Shown: positions 2,386-41,879 of the stretch, one piece after another
Position numbering within the stretch: the first letter of the stretch is position 1
Layout: each line of letters begins with the position of its first letter
Source of the DNA: a virus
Length of the DNA stretch: 45,168 nt
Virus genome (UHGV): UHGV-0041136
Reading direction: 5' to 3' (one strand)
The notes under the pieces: model-generated
Database searches by the model: none
Told to the model about the DNA's origin: nothing
The model's input: only the letters and a program-made list of their open reading frames with translations
Program-made: the position numbers and the translations under genes

Positions 2386-2492
2386 TTCCCAAACACTCCT
2401 TTAGTTTTCAGATTATGACGATAGAACTGCATCACATGCTCATTATGGAAGTTACTCATCTTCTCTACTCCGTTCTCGTTGTCGATGGAGTA

Positions 2493-2521
2493 AATATAAT
2501 AGGGTCTGGAGTAATAGTCAA
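2493..2521 (-). promoter_or_regulatory. sigma70-like promoter, minus strand (-35 TTGACT, 17-bp spacer, -10 TATATT)
   Basis: reverse complement of 2493..2521 reads TTGACT-N17-TATATT; spacer contains a degenerate copy of the shared element (AATATAATAGGGT); sits just downstream of the lysis-operon terminator. Confidence 0.45.
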
Positions 2522-2543
2522 CTAGTCATTGCAGAAAATAGAT

Positions 2544-2573
2544 AAAAAAATCCCGGCTGGGTCAGGGCCGGGA
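2544..2573 (-). terminator. rho-independent terminator after the endolysin gene
   Basis: TCCCGGC / GCCGGGA 7-bp stem; the plus-strand A7 run (2544..2550) gives a U7 tract after the hairpin on the minus transcript. Confidence 0.6.
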
Positions 2574-2647
2574 TAAAACTGGAGAGCAGAGGGATGGAAC
2601 AGGAGGTGATTGAGATGATTTAAGTATCGTCGGATTGGTCTCAGGTG

Positions 2648-3136
2648 TCAACCTTTCACCGCGCGCCCAATAGCCTCTGCCTCCCGCCACGGTTTACCAT
2701 CGAACAGCGCCAGGCGACCGGCGGTACGACGACGCAGACCAAGTAATGGTTTGCCATTCTGGTTGATGAACAGCGCCAGCTTAGCCCGCAGCGTCGCAAC
2801 ATCACCAGAACGCAGCGCCTTACCAGTGCCAGTAGTAGCCGCAATCACGCCAGCGCCTGCGTTATAGACCAGGTCACACACTGCGTCGAACTGTGCCTGT
2901 GTCAGTGAATGGTGTGCCGCTGCATCAACCGCAGCTACGGCTTTAGCCATATCGCGATTCAGTAACAGGAGGCCCTGACCTGGGGTGATGGTCTTACCCG
3001 GTGTTACATCCGGCCCATAGTGACCGTACCCAATAGTCAGGTACTTCTCATTCGGCGTAGCGCGATACGCAGTACCGCGGAACCCCTCGAACGCAGCGGT
3101 AAAATGCAATCCATTATCTGATATATTTCGAGACAC
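2648..3136 (-). CDS. endolysin, T4-lysozyme-like (GH24) muramidase
   Basis: FEGFRGTAYRATPNEKYLTIGYGH matches the GH24 catalytic region; GTG start at 3136 with GGAGGA SD 7 nt upstream (track ORF begins at an unlikely TTG 3187). Confidence 0.8.
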   Translation of the reverse strand: MSRNISDNGLHFTAAFEGFRGTAYRATPNEKYLTIGYGHYGPDVTPGKTITPGQGLLLLNRDMAKAVAAVDAAAHHSLTQAQFDAVCDLVYNAGAGVIAATTGTGKALRSGDVATLRAKLALFINQNGKPLLGLRRRTAGRLALFDGKPWREAEAIGRAVKG

Positions 3137-3386
3137 GCTTATGTCCTCCGTATGACAACCACGCCTGGCGAATCTGACGCAGCGCAACTAATGTGATTAA
3201 TGTTTCTGGCAGCGTCGGCGACATGCTGCCCTGTAGCAGGTGGATGCATCCGGCGGCGCAGACAATAGCGGTCAGGATATAGAGCACCCGACCAAATAGC
3301 CCGTCGTCAACACTCGGATGATACACATTAAACAGCGATGCGCCCCCGATTGCCAGCATACCGCCGAACCAGAATAACTCATTCAT
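3114..3386 (-). CDS. 2-TM membrane protein between holin and endolysin (second holin / antiholin candidate)
   Basis: ATG 3386 with GGAGG SD, overlaps holin stop; MNELFWFGGMLAIGGASLFNV...LYILTAIVCAAGCIHLL has two hydrophobic helices. Confidence 0.45.
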   Translation of the reverse strand: MNELFWFGGMLAIGGASLFNVYHPSVDDGLFGRVLYILTAIVCAAGCIHLLQGSMSPTLPETLITLVALRQIRQAWLSYGGHKRVSKYIR

Positions 3387-3687
3387 CCGGGCCTCCTCGA
3401 CGCGAGATGTATTCTCCGGCGACGATACCGGAGAGGCGGGAATAGATAGGCATCCAGAGGACAGCAATAATAAATCCGAGGCCAGCTATCTCACGTTCGC
3501 CGGTAATGCCAAACCATTGAGCAGCAAGAGGTGCGCCAAATACGGCGCAAGTGAAGCCGGTTGCGATAAAGCAGAAGCCATCGATAGGGCCAGAAATAAC
3601 GGACTTATGTTGCCGCAGTCCGATTACCCCTCCGGCTAGTGCGGCAGCGAGAAGCCACCCCGTCACTGTTTCAGTAAATTTATCCAA
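3379..3687 (-). CDS. holin candidate (about 3 TM segments)
   Basis: TTG start at 3687 with GGAGGA SD; three hydrophobic segments and charged C-terminus; first gene of the lysis cassette. Confidence 0.5.
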   Translation of the reverse strand: MDKFTETVTGWLLAAALAGGVIGLRQHKSVISGPIDGFCFIATGFTCAVFGAPLAAQWFGITGEREIAGLGFIIAVLWMPIYSRLSGIVAGEYISRRGGPDE

Positions 3688-3692
3688 GATGA

Positions 3693-3732
3693 ATCCTCCA
3701 GGTGCGTATTAAGTATGCAGTAACTGGAGGAT
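3693..3732 (-). promoter_or_regulatory. stem-loop that sequesters the holin Shine-Dalgarno
   Basis: perfect 9-bp inverted repeat ATCCTCCAG (3693..3701) / CTGGAGGAT (3724..3732), 22-nt loop; the 3' arm on the mRNA contains the GGAGGA SD of the holin. Confidence 0.45.
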
Positions 3733-3762
3733 AGCACGGTTAGGAATTATCTTAATAACGGT

Positions 3763-4056
3763 TTATTTATGACGCCAGATGTACTGTCGTCTCTGCGGTT
3801 TCGTTGGAATATCCTCGTATCCCAGCGATTTCCAGTAATTAAATAACCGATTAGCGATAGCTGCGCGTTCCTGTGTTTTAAACTCACCGAGATTCACAGC
3901 CTTCCCGTTCTGGAACCCACAGGCGCGGACGGCTTTGCGTCTGGCCTGAATCTCGGGGTACAGCGCATTACGGCGGCGCTTGTATATCTGTGTTTTAGCT
4001 CTCGGTGCCAGCGGCGCAAGGCCGCTTCGTTTCAGGATGTCAGTTGCTAGGTTCAT
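3763..4056 (-). CDS. hypothetical basic protein
   Basis: ATG 4056 overlaps upstream TGA; R/K-rich 97-aa product. Confidence 0.45.
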   Translation of the reverse strand: MNLATDILKRSGLAPLAPRAKTQIYKRRRNALYPEIQARRKAVRACGFQNGKAVNLGEFKTQERAAIANRLFNYWKSLGYEDIPTKPQRRQYIWRHK

Positions 4057-4235
4057 AAGTCGAGAATCTCACGCGCTAATTCATACGTCTTCCAGTCGCA
4101 CTGGCGGTCTATCACCTGTTTAGCAAGCCTACGTAACTTAAGCTCAAGTTTTACGTAGTCCGCGTAGGTCACGACCGCGACCCAATCCGCCCCGCTTCCA
4201 ATTTCACTCCCCCTAACCTCATATCTCTGTACCAT
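4053..4235 (-). CDS. small protein, MVQRY family copy B
   Basis: ATG 4235 with AGGAG SD; N-terminus MVQRYEV...YADYVKLELKL is paralogous to the neighbouring ORF. Confidence 0.4.
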   Translation of the reverse strand: MVQRYEVRGSEIGSGADWVAVVTYADYVKLELKLRRLAKQVIDRQCDWKTYELAREILDL

Positions 4236-4420
4236 CACTTCACTCCTTCCACATGTGTATCCGTCCCACAATTCGCACACTCGACGTAATCCGGGAACTG
4301 GTCTTTGTATTTCTGTAACTCGGCTTCGAGTTTCACGTAATCGTTATATAAGACCCAGTGCCCTTCATCACACGGGGCGACAAAACCACCCTGGAATAAG
4401 TATCTCTGTACCATAATCAC
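4235..4420 (-). CDS. small protein, MVQRY family copy A
   Basis: MIMVQRYLF...YNDYVKLEAELQKY shares the MVQRY...DYVKLE pattern with 4053..4235. Confidence 0.4.
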   Translation of the reverse strand: MIMVQRYLFQGGFVAPCDEGHWVLYNDYVKLEAELQKYKDQFPDYVECANCGTDTHVEGVK

Positions 4421-4620
4421 TTCTCCTGTTTACCAAGTCGCTTAGGTGAGCAGATAGCGCGTACCTCTGAATCGTTAGGCTTGTCACCCTGAAACAGAAA
4501 GTGCGCGTTCTCTGCGGCGCGTGCCGCTGACTGGCACGCCTCCATCGAGTAAAACGTTTCTGTTGCCGCCAGGTGCATATGGCCTGCGGACAGTATCCAT
4601 ATAAATAAGATGCTGGTCAT
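4417..4620 (-). CDS. small protein with hydrophobic N-terminus (possible signal peptide)
   Basis: ATG 4620 overlaps upstream TGA; MTSILFIWILSAGHMHLAA... (track ORF extended to 4677). Confidence 0.35.
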   Translation of the reverse strand: MTSILFIWILSAGHMHLAATETFYSMEACQSAARAAENAHFLFQGDKPNDSEVRAICSPKRLGKQEK

Positions 4621-4979
4621 GTCGTTTCCCCACATCTGCGGCGCACAAAATAATCCTCGTCGGCGTCTAACACCCAATCATGCTCACCTATTTGGCAACC
4701 GGATTGCTCCCGTTCGCGGATAAGTTTGTACAGCTCTTCGCTACCCGTAGCTTTGACCAGTGCCATGTGTAGCTCCTTAACTTGTCCTGTCAGGTGCGAT
4801 ATGTGCTCAGATTTCTTAATGTTGTCTTTCTGCAACTCGCCCACCAGCTCCGACGCATCACGCAACTGGTTCTTAAGTGACTGCACCTCGTGCGCCAGGT
4901 CTTCGCACTGGTTGCTGTTTACCTGCTGCCGTAGCTGGTCAATCAGGTACTCGAATACTTCGTTTTTGCTATTCATCAT
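4617..4979 (-). CDS. hypothetical coiled-coil protein
   Basis: ATG-ATG at 4979/4976; first gene downstream of the promoter at 5118..5146. Confidence 0.5.
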   Translation of the reverse strand: MMNSKNEVFEYLIDQLRQQVNSNQCEDLAHEVQSLKNQLRDASELVGELQKDNIKKSEHISHLTGQVKELHMALVKATGSEELYKLIREREQSGCQIGEHDWVLDADEDYFVRRRCGETT

Positions 4980-5117
4980 CCACCCCCATCATTACTTCAC
5001 AGTTATCACCGTCGCACGCCGAAGTGCTGCGACTTGTTTCATAGGCGTCAACCAGTTCACCTAAAGTAAATTCACAATAGCTGTTCACTCTGTCTCTCCT
5101 CTCGTTTGAGTAAATGA

Positions 5118-5146
5118 ATAGTAGCCTATTCTATCTTAGTGTGCAA
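5118..5146 (-). promoter_or_regulatory. conserved promoter element, minus strand (-35 TTGCAC, 17 bp, -10 TACTAT) with AATAG-N4-CTATT inverted repeat
   Basis: plus strand tgAATAGtagcCTATTctatcttagtGTGCAAg; the same core recurs at 6468, 30060, 39165 and 41829. Confidence 0.5.
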
Positions 5147-5221
5147 GTTAATTTTATTGGTGTTTGTATTGTTGCATCTCCTGCAATAGTCGCTCCGATT
5201 GTTGCGTTTGGTGAAATAGAA

Positions 5222-5260
5222 CAAAAATGAGAAAAATGATACGCTGCTGGGTAGCAGCGT
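5222..5260 (-). terminator. rho-independent terminator after the DUF551 pair
   Basis: ACGCTGCT-gggt-AGCAGCGT 8-bp stem; minus transcript then reads ATCATTTTTCTCATTTTTG. Confidence 0.55.
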
Positions 5261-5274
5261 AAGTCACAAAGCCA

Positions 5275-5288
5275 AATAGTAACCTATT
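5275..5288. promoter_or_regulatory. additional AATAG-N4-CTATT operator-like site
   Basis: AATAGtaacCTATT followed by TTGACC; between the DUF551 gene end and the terminator. Confidence 0.3.
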
Positions 5289-5306
5289 GACCTGTTACAC
5301 CACCTG

Positions 5307-5504
5307 TTACACCAGCGATGGCGGCTCTGGTAACGGCATCCAGTGGGTAACATCGTCACTACTGATATTCGAGTTACGCGGCGCCCAACAATCCCAGAAG
5401 CCATCGCAATCCCGCCACATCACCTCAACGTTACCCCCATCCGAAACCAGCACATCTTCAAATTCTTCCGGCATCCGTTCACTACACTCAATCCACTTAC
5501 CCAT
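5307..5504 (-). CDS. DUF551-like small protein, copy 1
   Basis: MGKWIECSERMPEE...VTHWMPLPEPPSLV; WMPLPEPP C-terminus as I recall for DUF551 phage proteins. Confidence 0.5.
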   Translation of the reverse strand: MGKWIECSERMPEEFEDVLVSDGGNVEVMWRDCDGFWDCWAPRNSNISSDDVTHWMPLPEPPSLV

Positions 5505-5514
5505 ATCTCACCCC

Positions 5515-5700
5515 TTATTCATCACACTTCAGAGACTCAGGTAACGGCATCCAGTGTGTTACGCCAACACACTTAACGTATCCATCACAAACAAAGTCAC
5601 CGATGTATCTTGCTATAAAGCCATACCCGGCGCGGGCATAAACAATTACGTCCTCACCCTCTTCCGGCATCCGTTCACTACACTCAATCCACTTACCCAT
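5515..5700 (-). CDS. DUF551-like small protein, copy 2 (tandem paralog)
   Basis: MGKWIECSERMPEEGEDV...VTHWMPLPESLKCDE; identical first 14 residues and shared C-terminal motif with 5307..5504. Confidence 0.5.
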   Translation of the reverse strand: MGKWIECSERMPEEGEDVIVYARAGYGFIARYIGDFVCDGYVKCVGVTHWMPLPESLKCDE

Positions 5701-6433: not shown

Positions 6434-6467
6434 AACCCTCACTCCTCTGTCTCGTTCCGATAAGTGA

Positions 6468-6496
6468 ATAGTATCCTATTATGTTGGGGTGTGCAA
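6468..6496 (-). promoter_or_regulatory. conserved promoter element, minus strand (-35 TTGCAC, 17 bp, -10 TACTAT) with AATAG-N4-CTATT
   Basis: plus strand gtgAATAGtatcCTATTatgttggggtGTGCAAg; near-identical to the element at 30060..30089 in reverse orientation. Confidence 0.5.
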
Positions 6497-6589: not shown

Positions 6590-6866
6590 GGTAATCGTTA
6601 CATTTTTACGGTTGCGAATCTACGGCACTTTAAGAAAATCAGATACTTAAGAGATATGCTGCCGATGAGAATAGAGCTTGCCCAGAGCAACCGGAGATAC
6701 TAAGGAAGGAAAGTTACGATAATTCTCGTGTTCAGTAAGCCTGTGTTTAACCCTTTGCTTGACGCACGTGTTAAACATTCTTACAAGGTGAACAGGAATC
6801 AAAGTAACTAAGATATAGAAGCACCTTAAACGAAGATTTTCATAATGTCAATAGGTGCAATTATGT

Positions 6867-6895
6867 TTGATTTCCCATTATTCGCAATGTATACT
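6867..6895 (+). promoter_or_regulatory. candidate rightward promoter for the replication operon (-35 TTGATT, 17 bp, -10 TATACT)
   Basis: AT-rich region about 30 nt upstream of the HTH gene ATG 6928. Confidence 0.35.
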
Positions 6896-9888: not shown

Positions 9889-9905
9889 TGAATAGTACCA
9901 TATTA
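9889..9905 (-). promoter_or_regulatory. operator copy (AATAGtaccATATT) overlapping the extended -10 (TGgTACTAT) of the regulator promoter
   Basis: minus strand reads ...aatatggTACTATtcacatatc...AAGGAG...ATG. Confidence 0.45.
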
Positions 9906-9924: not shown

Positions 9925-9953
9925 TTGACATAATGAATAGTTAGCTATTATAG
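9925..9953 (+). promoter_or_regulatory. class II promoter: -35 TTGACA, operator AATAGttagCTATT overlapping -10 (TATTAT/ATTATA)
   Basis: cccaTTGACAtaatgAATAGttagCTATTatag, 35 nt upstream of ATG 9986; same arrangement at 12629..12656. Confidence 0.5.
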
Positions 9954-12628: not shown

Positions 12629-12656
12629 TTGACACCTGAATAGTTAGCTATTATAG
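12629..12656 (+). promoter_or_regulatory. class II promoter: -35 TTGACA, operator AATAGttagCTATT, -10 TATTAT
   Basis: gtgTTGACAcctgAATAGttagCTATTatagtt, same arrangement as 9925..9953. Confidence 0.5.
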
Positions 12657-16124: not shown

Positions 16125-16405
16125 CCCCAGAAGGCAAGATTCAGAAATACGCAAAAGAGCGATTCGAGGCCATTGGCGGCCTCGTTCGTAAACTTTCCTA
16201 CGAAGGACGTTCCGGCGCTCCTGACCTGCTGGTAATTCTCCCCGGCGGCATCGTCTGGTTCGTTGAGGTTAAGAAAGATGAAAACACGAAGCCCGACCCC
16301 CACCAGTTACGCGAGCACGAGCGGATGCGTAAAAGAGGTGCAAATGTTTTTGTCGTCGGTTCGTTTAAACAGGTTGACGACCTAATAGCGAACTATTATA
16401 GTTAG
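16121..16405 (+). CDS. VRR-NUC domain nuclease
   Basis: ATG 16121; GAPDLLVILPGGIVWFVEVKK...RGANVFVV matches the VRR-NUC pattern. Confidence 0.65.
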   Translation: MTPEGKIQKYAKERFEAIGGLVRKLSYEGRSGAPDLLVILPGGIVWFVEVKKDENTKPDPHQLREHERMRKRGANVFVVGSFKQVDDLIANYYS

Positions 16406-19388: not shown

Positions 19389-19757
19389 ATGACTGAGAAA
19401 GAATTACGCAAAGCCGCGCTCTTATATTTGGAAATGGCTGCGCTATCCTGCGCCAGGGGTGCGTACTACGATACGCTAAGTGGTTACAGAACATACATTA
19501 TAGGAGCCACACTAAGAGACGGAGGGGCGCGTACAGATAATCACGCTGATAATATGTTCCAGGCTGAAGAGAATGCCAGAAAAGCATTACAATCCTTAAT
19601 TGGAGAAAGAACGATATCAGTATTTGAAGAACATCATGGCGCAATCAGGGTAACTATTTGGCATGGCGAAAAATTAATAGGGCATTATTCTATTGAACAA
19701 AAATCCGTAAATGTTTTTGACGGTGAACCGCTAACTGCGGAAGGCGAACAAAAATGA
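19389..19757 (+). CDS. hypothetical protein
   Basis: ATG 19389; lies in AT-rich accessory segment. Confidence 0.45.
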   Translation: MTEKELRKAALLYLEMAALSCARGAYYDTLSGYRTYIIGATLRDGGARTDNHADNMFQAEENARKALQSLIGERTISVFEEHHGAIRVTIWHGEKLIGHYSIEQKSVNVFDGEPLTAEGEQK

Positions 19758-30059: not shown

Positions 30060-30089
30060 TTGCACACCCCAATATAATAGGGTACTATT
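30060..30089 (+). promoter_or_regulatory. conserved promoter element, plus strand (-35 TTGCAC, 17 bp, -10 TACTAT) with AATAGggtaCTATT
   Basis: cTTGCACaccccaatatAATAGggTACTATTcac, 28 nt upstream of ATG 30117. Confidence 0.5.
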
Positions 30090-30116
30090 CACCTGTAACT
30101 TACTGAGGAAATAATT

Positions 30117-38846: not shown

Positions 38847-39096
38847 GTTTCTCCTTTCTCGATAAGTAAAGCCCCGCCATAAAGCGGGGCGCTAGTCCTT
38901 ATCATTTAAACATAGAAACGGCGTAATCTCAGTAAACCAGTTACTTTTTACACAAGCAATAGAGTATGGCCCTTCCGAACGCGTCAGCGTAACTACACTC
39001 AGGACTTACGTCCCGCTCCGTTACCTGCCCGCGCCGCGGTCGCTTGCGATATCTCACAAGCTCAGGTGGAGCTTATCATATTTTTAGTGAAAAGTC

Positions 39097-39112
39097 AACT
39101 ATTCGAATAGTT
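39097..39112. repeat. perfect 16-bp palindrome AACTATTCGAATAGTT
   Basis: read directly; contains the CTATT/AATAG half-sites in everted arrangement, about 55 bp upstream of the promoter at 39165. Confidence 0.45.
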
Positions 39113-39163: not shown

Positions 39164-39215
39164 TTTGCAGACACCAATATAATAGGGTACTATTCAGTTA
39201 ACTTAAACAGGAGGT
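39164..39215 (+). repeat. 52-bp direct repeat, copy 1 (promoter + leader + SD of cassette B)
   Basis: identical by eye to 41828..41879. Confidence 0.6.
39165..39194 (+). promoter_or_regulatory. conserved promoter element (-35 TTGCAG, 17 bp, -10 TACTAT) with AATAGggtaCTATT
   Basis: TTGCAGacaccaatatAATAGggTACTATTcag then AGGAGG and ATG 39221. Confidence 0.5.
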
Positions 39216-41827: not shown

Positions 41828-41879
41828 TTTGCAGACACCAATATAATAGGGTACTATTCAGTTAACTTAAACAGGAGGT
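41828..41879 (+). repeat. 52-bp direct repeat, copy 2 (promoter + leader + SD of cassette C)
   Basis: identical by eye to 39164..39215. Confidence 0.6.
41829..41858 (+). promoter_or_regulatory. conserved promoter element (-35 TTGCAG, 17 bp, -10 TACTAT) with AATAGggtaCTATT
   Basis: same sequence as 39165..39194; ATG 41885. Confidence 0.5.

Follow-up and report, generated by a model that had tools for sequence, protein, structure and literature searches.

The lysis genes of the virus genome UHGV-0041136 raise the question of what is gained when the Shine-Dalgarno (SD) sequence of a holin gene is enclosed in a hairpin. The whole stretch analysed, 45,168 nucleotides (nt) in length and hereafter called the window, carries such an arrangement on its minus strand at the head of a lysis cassette, where the hairpin might be a constant brake on holin translation, a transcription terminator, or an element of another kind. 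The answer favoured here, with some reserve, is that a dedicated lysis promoter lies inside the hairpin, and that the hairpin would mask the ribosome site only on RNA reading through from upstream, as a sigma-70 counterpart of the element at gene e of phage T4.

Judged by sequence identity and gene order, the window is a Kagunavirus (Guernseyvirinae) genome: it is about one genome long, its positions 2400..5300 are 87-91% identical to the best-matching Kagunavirus siphophages of E. coli (for example Bas71, RP180, and vB_Eco_K-02), and its gene order matches that of these relatives. The first lysis gene and the hairpin in front of it are as follows.

3379..3687, minus strand: holin 1, 102 amino acids (aa), TTG start at 3687..3685, three hydrophobic segments, phrog_2359 (E = 5.9e-29)
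3724..3732, minus strand: hairpin 5' arm, an anti-SD mimic, AUCCUCCAG, from the repeat search and the fold
3702..3723, minus strand: hairpin loop of 22 nt, nearly invariant in Kagunavirus; on the proposed model, the 5' end of the lysis mRNA leader
3693..3701, minus strand: hairpin 3' arm, CUGGAGGAU, including the SD GGAGGA (3698..3693) and followed by the tail UUCAUCUU, a poor U tract

The two arms form an exact 9-bp inverted repeat (ATCCTCCAG at 3732..3724 and CTGGAGGAT at 3701..3693, 22 nt apart), and GGAGGA is located entirely within the 3' arm, 6 nt from the TTG. This TTG is the first possible start in the open reading frame (ORF) of holin 1, the next in-frame start being a GTG at codon 8 without an SD, and is retained in 40 of the 40 IMG/VR relatives. 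The RNA from 3740 to 3685 is predicted to fold at -16.1 kcal/mol (z = -3.65), and none of 200 shuffled sequences was as stable. An initial annotation, made from the sequence without database searches, had proposed both the repeat with the SD in its 3' arm and the folding of the minus-strand leader; the repeat was found exactly where it had been placed, and the stem-loop forms in the prediction. No match at the gathering score was obtained in a scan of the whole window against Rfam 15, and when the leader loop, the -35/-10 block, and the spacer palindrome (described below) were sought elsewhere in the window, all were unique or at the chance level.

Of the phage records, 121 contain the Kagunavirus leader and about 120 the holin, so that essentially every holin-bearing record has the leader. 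Its nucleotide diversity between -44 and +15 is 0.007-0.015 versus about 0.2 in the holin gene (39 of the 40 IMG/VR loci plus the window), the leader thus being 15-30 times less diverse, and the conserved block survives replacement of the upstream gene. Pairing is kept or extended in the variants: a stem A is changed to G in L039, giving a G-U pair, a loop change in L025 adds one G-C pair to the stem, and loop changes in LSPA1/L029 add four pairs.

The same layout recurs in seven further lineages, making eight with Kagunavirus. Single-sequence folds for each lineage place a hairpin immediately ahead of the first lysis gene and the SD within the 3' arm of that hairpin, and the stem sequences differ in each of the eight.

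Kagunavirus: AUCCUCCAG / CUGGAGGAU
Jerseyvirus: AAUCUCCGAAG / UUUCGGAGAUU
Cornellvirus: CUCCGUAUGG / CCUAUACGGAG
Dhillonvirus: AGUCCCAGUGAG / CUUACUGGGACU
phiEap-2: CCCCUG / CAGGGG
Tsm2: GCCUCGG / CUGAGGC
Klebsiella 37P2 (with L082): CCCCCGAAU / AUUCGGGGG
Klebsiella KLB22: CCCCGG.. / ..CGGGG

Between Jerseyvirus and Cornellvirus an A-U pair is exchanged for U-A with pairing kept, and in the Dhillonvirus locus L072 an inserted C is offset by an A to G change. Two phages serve as natural controls. In Erwinia phage RF1 the genes upstream of a homologous cassette are divergent, an arrangement in which no read-through is possible, and a masking hairpin is absent; in Pantoea phage MED16 a conventional terminator stands apart and an open leader comes after it. 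Conserved within Kagunavirus and rebuilt in seven other lineages with other stem sequences, the stem-loop is, by these comparisons, under selection.

In Jerseyvirus, Dhillonvirus, 37P2, and KLB22 the hairpin is succeeded by a run of U residues (U5-U7), which is a terminator feature, and GenBank annotations mark the hairpin as a terminator in the Jerseyvirus Salmonella phage vB_SenS-Ent1 (HE775250.1, 39696..39735) and in Klebsiella phage KLB22. Judged from their sequences, the hairpins with a U run probably also terminate transcription. The U run is missing from Kagunavirus, Cornellvirus, phiEap-2, and Tsm2, all of which keep a hairpin that holds the SD in its 3' arm, and masking of the SD is therefore the universal property and termination an add-on. 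The hairpins annotated in Ent1 and KLB22 are homologous or analogous to that of the window and occupy the same position, overlapping the start codon region; the annotations mention neither the SD in the 3' arm nor the -10 over the 5' arm, and the window version is without the U run. The start codon of the first lysis gene is TTG in the window, GTG in Jerseyvirus, and ATG elsewhere, and the TTG is taken as a separate, lineage-specific throttle.

A candidate promoter is located on the hairpin itself.

3728..3736, minus strand: proposed extended -10 TGcTATCCT (TG at 3736..3735, hexamer TATCCT at 3733..3728), from conserved columns and a position weight matrix (PWM)
3719..3723, minus strand: predicted start of the lysis mRNA by standard sigma-70 geometry, likeliest at A3721, 7 nt past the hexamer and just beyond the 5' arm
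3740..3755, minus strand: imperfect palindrome TTAAGA-TAAT-TCCTAA in the spacer of the lysis promoter (TTAGGA-TAAT-TCCTAA in most relatives)

The last five bases of TGcTATCCT are the first five of the hairpin 5' arm. When 15 leaders from 7 lineages (KLB22 was not included) were aligned with MAFFT, the invariant columns upstream of the loop are T-12, A-11, and T-7, together with a C two columns further, in the 5' arm; KLB22 carries the same three bases in its TACTAT. The -10 hexamers are TATCCT in the window and TAATCT, TAAYCT, TATAGT, and TATACT across the other aligned lineages, and in all eight lineages a sigma-70-like -10 abuts or overlaps the 5' arm. The hexamer is located wholly outside the stem in phiEap-2, Tsm2, 37P2, L082, and KLB22, and pairing cannot account for its conservation there. 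In this group the -10 is partnered by a -35, as TTGCAG-N18-TATACT (phiEap-2 class) or TTGACC-17-TACTAT (KLB22), without TG, whereas the four lineages without a good -35 all carry TGn directly before the hexamer, the n being variable (C or G within Kagunavirus). As a sequence pattern, this reciprocity is the classical trade-off between the -35 and the extended -10. The 7-8 nt immediately before the -10 are variable, while the hexamers are constant. By the PWM, which is a rough one made from hexamer frequencies, the -10 site of the window ranks 61st among 90,264 positions (top 0.07%), above the upstream promoter at 5146 (rank 89; see below), and sites within the top 0.01-0.5% of positions are present in ten leaders of the seven aligned lineages. 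The only -35-like hexamer in the window leader is TTAAGA (3755..3750), 16 nt from the -10. An alternative -10, GATAAT at 3751..3746, was rejected: its -35 is poor, its rank is 1337, and it is not conserved in other lineages.

Since the hexamer of each lineage touches or overlaps the 5' arm, a transcript begun 5-9 nt beyond it would start at the end of that arm or further on. In transcripts modelled from such starts most of the masking is lost, and the energy predicted for opening the region from SD to start decreases from 10.2 to 4.6 kcal/mol in the window and from 9-20 to 1-8 kcal/mol in the other lineages, the exception being phiEap-2 (and 37P2 at the earliest modelled start), which stays near 9-10.5 kcal/mol.

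The RNA on which the hairpin would act is that arriving from upstream, for which one promoter is the likely source.

5118..5146, minus strand: upstream promoter TTGCAC-17-TACTAT, PWM rank 89 of 90,264, conserved in relatives

This promoter is kept, at no more than three mismatches, in 30 of 40 related loci, in front of differing genes and 0.7-2.6 kb from the holin. From 5118 to 3732 the terminator scans gave no canonical terminator and weak intragenic candidates only, and the curated annotation of Schulenburg has terminators ahead of the 5146-type promoter and behind the endolysin, with none between promoter and leader. The view of the initial annotation that no terminator separates this promoter from the cassette thus holds for canonical terminators. 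Since no canonical terminator precedes the hairpin, transcription of the small-gene block, whose content differs among phages, is expected to continue into the cassette, and from its position and conservation the promoter at 5146..5118 appears a plausible origin of such read-through.

Taken together, the 75-nt holin leader is proposed to be a compound control element. The holin SD is the 3' arm of a hairpin, and the 5' arm of that hairpin would be overlapped by a weak sigma-70 promoter with an extended -10 (3736..3728), dedicated to the lysis genes. RNA polymerase from this promoter would start at about 3721, past the 5' arm, so that the hairpin could not form and GGAGGA would be free; transcripts from upstream would contain both arms and fold co-transcriptionally, and their ribosome site would be masked. 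In the lineages with a U run (Jerseyvirus, Dhillonvirus, 37P2, and KLB22), the hairpin would in addition terminate the upstream transcripts. The net effect would be a holin level fixed by the dedicated promoter and the weak TTG and insulated from upstream transcription.

The closest known system is that of T4 genes e (lysozyme), soc, 49, and I-TevI, in which an inhibitory hairpin covers the initiation region and a promoter lies inside it (McPheeters et al. 1986; reviewed in PMC3014915, section 29). As with T4 gene e, the lysis gene is located downstream of earlier transcription units, and a helix in the read-through RNA is predicted to sequester the SD or the start. The helix over the SD is predicted for the long transcripts of eight lineages (10.2 kcal/mol for its opening in the read-through RNA of the window). 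As a candidate for the promoter inside it, a conserved TGnTAnnnT or TATACT is located on or against the DNA of the 5' strand, from which we infer the start at about 3721, and upstream read-through may come from the conserved promoter at 5146..5118, with no canonical terminator before 3732. The gp55-dependent late promoter TATAAATA of T4 is absent: the window has a TG-extended TATCCT of the host sigma-70 type (TGnTAnnnT) with no built-in temporal switch evident, which makes the element analogous to the T4 late-promoter class without belonging to it. It differs from T4 gene e also in that the masked gene is the holin, the first of three overlapping genes, and not the endolysin, and in that the hairpin of sister lineages has a U run and probably terminates as well.

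Several points weigh against the proposed mechanism. Exact 9-bp inverted repeats with loops of up to 40 nt number 5 in the window versus 4.68 +/- 2.28 in shuffled sequences, i.e., the chance level, and the cost of 10.2 kcal/mol for opening the region from SD to start is only the 10th among 66 crude gene starts (median 5.5). The frequency and energy of the hairpin being unexceptional, the case for a non-chance hairpin rests on its position and conservation and not on the repeat itself. Formal covariation across lineages was countable for six pairs, of which only one was compensatory; MAFFT had misaligned the 3' arms, and RNAalifold likewise gave no consensus fold across lineages from an alignment in which the 3' arms were out of register. 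In the short transcript of the window, a structure of 4.6 kcal/mol is still predicted. The promoter of the window is weak by consensus (TATCCT 4/6 and TTAAGA 4/6 at 16 nt) and was not listed by the consensus scan, and in Kagunavirus, Jerseyvirus, Cornellvirus, and Dhillonvirus the -10 is partly stem, its conservation being confounded with pairing. The literature on transcription in Kagunavirus, Jerseyvirus, and Dhillonvirus gave only a coarse time course of vB_Eco_K1B4, without mapping of 5' ends, in which lysozyme falls into the "middle" class (PMC12645636). No late-specific factor is known, and the element would give insulation and does not itself explain timing; its function is therefore read as insulating the dosage of holin rather than as a temporal switch. 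Finally, the conserved spacer palindrome is unexplained by the mechanism. Relatives of this motif are GATTAATCC / GATTAATC in the phiEap-2 class and GATTAAT in Dhillonvirus, while Jerseyvirus and Cornellvirus have GGATAAATCC, placed some 25 nt more upstream (loci L074, L075, L076, L082, L042, and L041). From its sequence, the palindrome may be the operator of a regulator of lysis timing.

If there were no internal promoter, the cassette would be the distal part of the operon transcribed from 5146..5118, and the hairpin, present in all lysis mRNA, would together with the TTG permanently throttle the holin and delay lysis. This explanation, which we consider unlikely, accords with a hairpin and a TTG that are both real and conserved, with the conserved promoter at 5146 and the lack of a canonical terminator before 3732, and with an internal promoter that is weak by consensus and unlisted by the scan. 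Weak or structured initiation regions are common among holins, as in the case of lambda S. It leaves unexplained, however, the invariance of T-12, A-11, and T-7, including the lineages with the hexamer outside the stem, the reciprocity between the TG extension and a good -35, and the beginning of conservation exactly at the -35; moreover, where a U run is present, upstream transcripts would mostly stop before the holin, and expression in such phages requires a promoter located past the 5' arm. The initial annotation had assumed the absence of any internal promoter or terminator between the upstream genes and the cassette. The first half of this premise is probably wrong in view of the conserved -10 signature on or against the 5' arm, accompanied by a TG extension or a good -35, which makes a candidate internal promoter in the window; as to the second, the same hairpin bears a U run in four sister lineages. 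Of the post-transcriptional restraint of the holin that it had proposed, the SD-sequestering stem-loop and the TTG are real and the hairpin is selected, but RNA started at about 3721 would lack the 5' arm and have its SD unmasked, and the hairpin is thus more likely a filter against read-through than a constant brake.

It is quite improbable, in our judgement, that the hairpin is primarily a terminator or attenuator closing the upstream unit, with the SD brought into the 3' arm by compact spacing, the masking incidental, and the window version decayed and leaky. The U5-U7 runs and the GenBank annotations of Ent1 and KLB22 speak for termination, and a permissive terminator scan, alone among the scans, flagged the window hairpin with the tail TTCATCTT. 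In the window itself, however, the 22-nt loop and the tail UUCAUCUU make a poor terminator, which the consensus scan did not list, and the four lineages without a U run keep the hairpin and the masked SD. An overlapping promoter would still be needed for expression of the cassette, and at this point the explanation merges with that of a promoter inside a masking hairpin.

That the inverted repeat has no function as RNA is highly improbable, whether it is taken as a chance repeat in a leader conserved for another reason, at a mosaic recombination junction, or as a DNA operator for a dimeric protein. Such repeats occur at the chance rate in this genome, the leader is located at a mosaic boundary with either an HslV-like peptidase gene or the 97-aa ORF upstream, and palindromic operators are used elsewhere in the genome; but a stem at the same place with unrelated arms in eight lineages would not be tolerated by a protein-binding site, the G-U-compatible change in L039 suits RNA pairing and not DNA symmetry, and the SD is always in the 3' arm of a motif that is unique in the window. 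The operator reading was rejected on the unrelated arms, the G-U change, and the position of the SD.

In lambda pR', a Q-binding element is located between the -35 and the -10. A miniature late switch of this type, in which a constitutive promoter is followed immediately by a terminator hairpin and a Q-like antiterminator binds the spacer motif, would fit the conserved, partly palindromic motif between -35 and -10 in most lineages and the hairpin with a U run directly downstream in four, but it has very little probability and was rejected, because the -10 abuts or overlaps the 5' arm and a transcript started inside the hairpin cannot hold the whole of it, because no Q-like protein was seen among the upstream ORFs, which vary between relatives, and because in Jerseyvirus and Cornellvirus the motif is shifted upstream by about 25 nt.

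Two other known arrangements resemble the proposed promoter within a masking hairpin in part. In lambda S, as also in P22 gene 13 and phage 21 S, the sdi stem-loop is combined with dual starts for holin and antiholin (Met1-Lys2-Met3 in lambda). The likeness is that a stem-loop at the holin initiation region tunes translation and that holin expression is weak; the difference is that ribosomes are split there between two in-frame starts, while here the TTG is the single start, codon 8 having no SD, and the antiholin candidate is a separate gene. In promoter-coupled terminators, a stem-loop serving as the -35 is followed by a T tract, the -10, and a start about 10 bp past the termination site (Fletcher et al., bioRxiv 10.64898/2026.08.19.745784). 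There too the end of one unit and the start of the next use overlapping DNA between tandem genes, but the elements stand in the opposite order: in the leaders described here the promoter hexamers come ahead of the 5' arm or overlap it, transcription would start within the hairpin, and the 3' arm is also the ribosome-binding site. The only -10-like sequence downstream of the hairpin, GATAAA, lies within holin codons 2-3; it could not express the gene and was rejected.

The remainder of the cassette consists of the following features.

3114..3386, minus strand: second holin or antiholin, 90 aa, ATG at 3386, phrog_2508 (E = 1.1e-33)
2648..3136, minus strand: GH24 (P22 gp19-like) endolysin, GTG start, SD GGAGGA, PF00959 (E = 5.6e-27), phrog_7 and phrog_33703
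2543..2574, minus strand: intrinsic terminator closing the cassette, GC-rich 8-bp stem (2574..2567 / 2557..2550), 9-nt loop, T run

Profile matches, the Schulenburg annotation, and the stem with its T run support the composition initially described, i.e., a TTG-started holin, a protein with two transmembrane domains (TMDs), and a GH24 endolysin, overlapping and closed by a terminator. The set of phrog_2359, phrog_2508, and GH24 lysozyme is that of a Guernseyvirinae-type cassette, syntenic with those of Schulenburg, Bas71, and RP180, and Schulenburg is annotated with the same three lysis genes and a terminator at the equivalent place after the endolysin. Holin 1 is identical to Schulenburg gp071, to which TMHMM gives three TMDs, at 97 of 102 residues, and 46% identical to the Dhillonvirus holin over the full length. 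The start of the second membrane protein, the Schulenburg homologue of which has two TMDs in its annotation, was corrected to the ATG at 3386 from 3389, with an overlap of 8 nt with holin 1 (ATGAATGA); the endolysin start agrees with that of Schulenburg gp073, and its overlap with the second holin is 23 nt. Spanins are encoded elsewhere in the genome according to the Kagunavirus paper (PMC9825357).

A hairpin resembling a terminator, GGACUgcggcaacauaAGUCC with GUUAUUUCU behind it, is located at 3600-3621 (minus strand) within the holin gene, past the first transmembrane segment, and a terminator was predicted by ARNold at the equivalent place in fBC-Eco01; this hairpin may be a chance structure or an internal attenuator. 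In Escherichia phage fTaEco03 (MT711528.1; L107), a tandem duplication of about 300 bp at 2190-2620 has produced an extra copy of the 3' end of the upstream gene, the lysis leader, and the first 38 or so holin codons. A second leader and the complete holin gene come after it, and the annotation gives the truncated copy as putative antiholin/holin.

Upstream of the leader, the gene content varies.

3763-4056, minus strand: 97-aa ORF directly upstream of the leader, phrog_9632, no Pfam match

In many relatives this ORF is swapped for a gene of an HslV-family peptidase, and the conserved leader begins exactly at this upstream-gene boundary, a mosaic junction. In the variable block further upstream, the adjacent small genes at 4053-4235 and 4235-4414 (minus strand) both start with MVQRY and have a common DYVKLE motif, and by their sequences look like a tandem duplication. 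A second pair of adjacent paralogous small genes at 5307-5504 and 5515-5700 (minus strand), both beginning with MGKWIECSERMPEE, is of a type annotated as DUF551 in relatives. The segment 5075-5160 (minus strand) between these pairs consists of an AT-rich stretch, TTGCAC-17-TACTAT, a leader ending with GAGAGGAGAGACAGA (TTCATTTACWCAAACGAGAGGAGAGACAGA), and a start codon; in Kagunavirus, both the first genes behind this cassette and the sequence ahead of it vary, as in a portable promoter-leader module.

The -10 of the 5146 promoter overlaps the palindrome GAATAGGCTACTATTC (5131..5116). The family GAATAG-N4-CTATTC (with variants TAATAG...CTATTA) has 15 copies in the window versus 1.3 expected, the following among others.

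2512-2527, 5116-5131, 5274-5289, 6466-6481, 9890-9905, 9935-9950, 12638-12653: palindrome copies
16383-16398, 19675-19690, 30075-30090, 39089-39104, 39180-39195, 41844-41859: palindrome copies, continued

At the strongest sigma-70-like sites, several copies occupy the spacer or cover the -10; the lysis leader is without a copy. From this distribution the palindrome is probably the operator of a phage regulator. A matching motif, tgAATAGTa-ccTATTat-T, was reported as a PHIRE repeat in fBC-Eco01 and credited to a phage RNA polymerase (PMC9825357), a gene for which no search was made in the window. At 6860-6895, back-to-back promoter-like sites (TTGCGA-16-CATAAT on the minus strand and TTGATT-17-TATACT on the plus strand) are located where the leftward block of small genes gives way to the rightward replication genes, with the gene of a helix-turn-helix protein adjoining; from these signals the region may be an early control region.

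T4 already provides the principle of a hairpin with a promoter inside, which the present element would extend without introducing a new concept: it would use a sigma-70-type promoter, mask the holin gene, and, in some lineages, terminate as well. More tentatively, and with somewhat less confidence than an even balance would give, the leader may be a three-in-one insulator of promoter, anti-SD hairpin, and in some lineages terminator, common to Guernseyvirinae, Dhillonvirus, and at least one unclassified Klebsiella siphophage, by which translation would be set by the origin of the transcript, the T4 gene e principle would extend to phages using the host sigma-70, and the lysis clock would be buffered against the accessory genes upstream, which are highly variable. 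The fitness of a virulent phage depends above all on when it lyses its host, and few siphophages are isolated as frequently for E. coli and Salmonella therapy as those of Kagunavirus, Jerseyvirus, and Dhillonvirus. Hairpins annotated as terminators just before lysis genes may serve two or three purposes. If the proposed mechanism is true, the -10, the stem, and the TTG start would offer a simple handle for engineering lysis time, and a short portable sequence would let only the transcripts of one promoter make holin, which would explain how these phages tolerate the constant turnover of small genes upstream of their lysis cassette.

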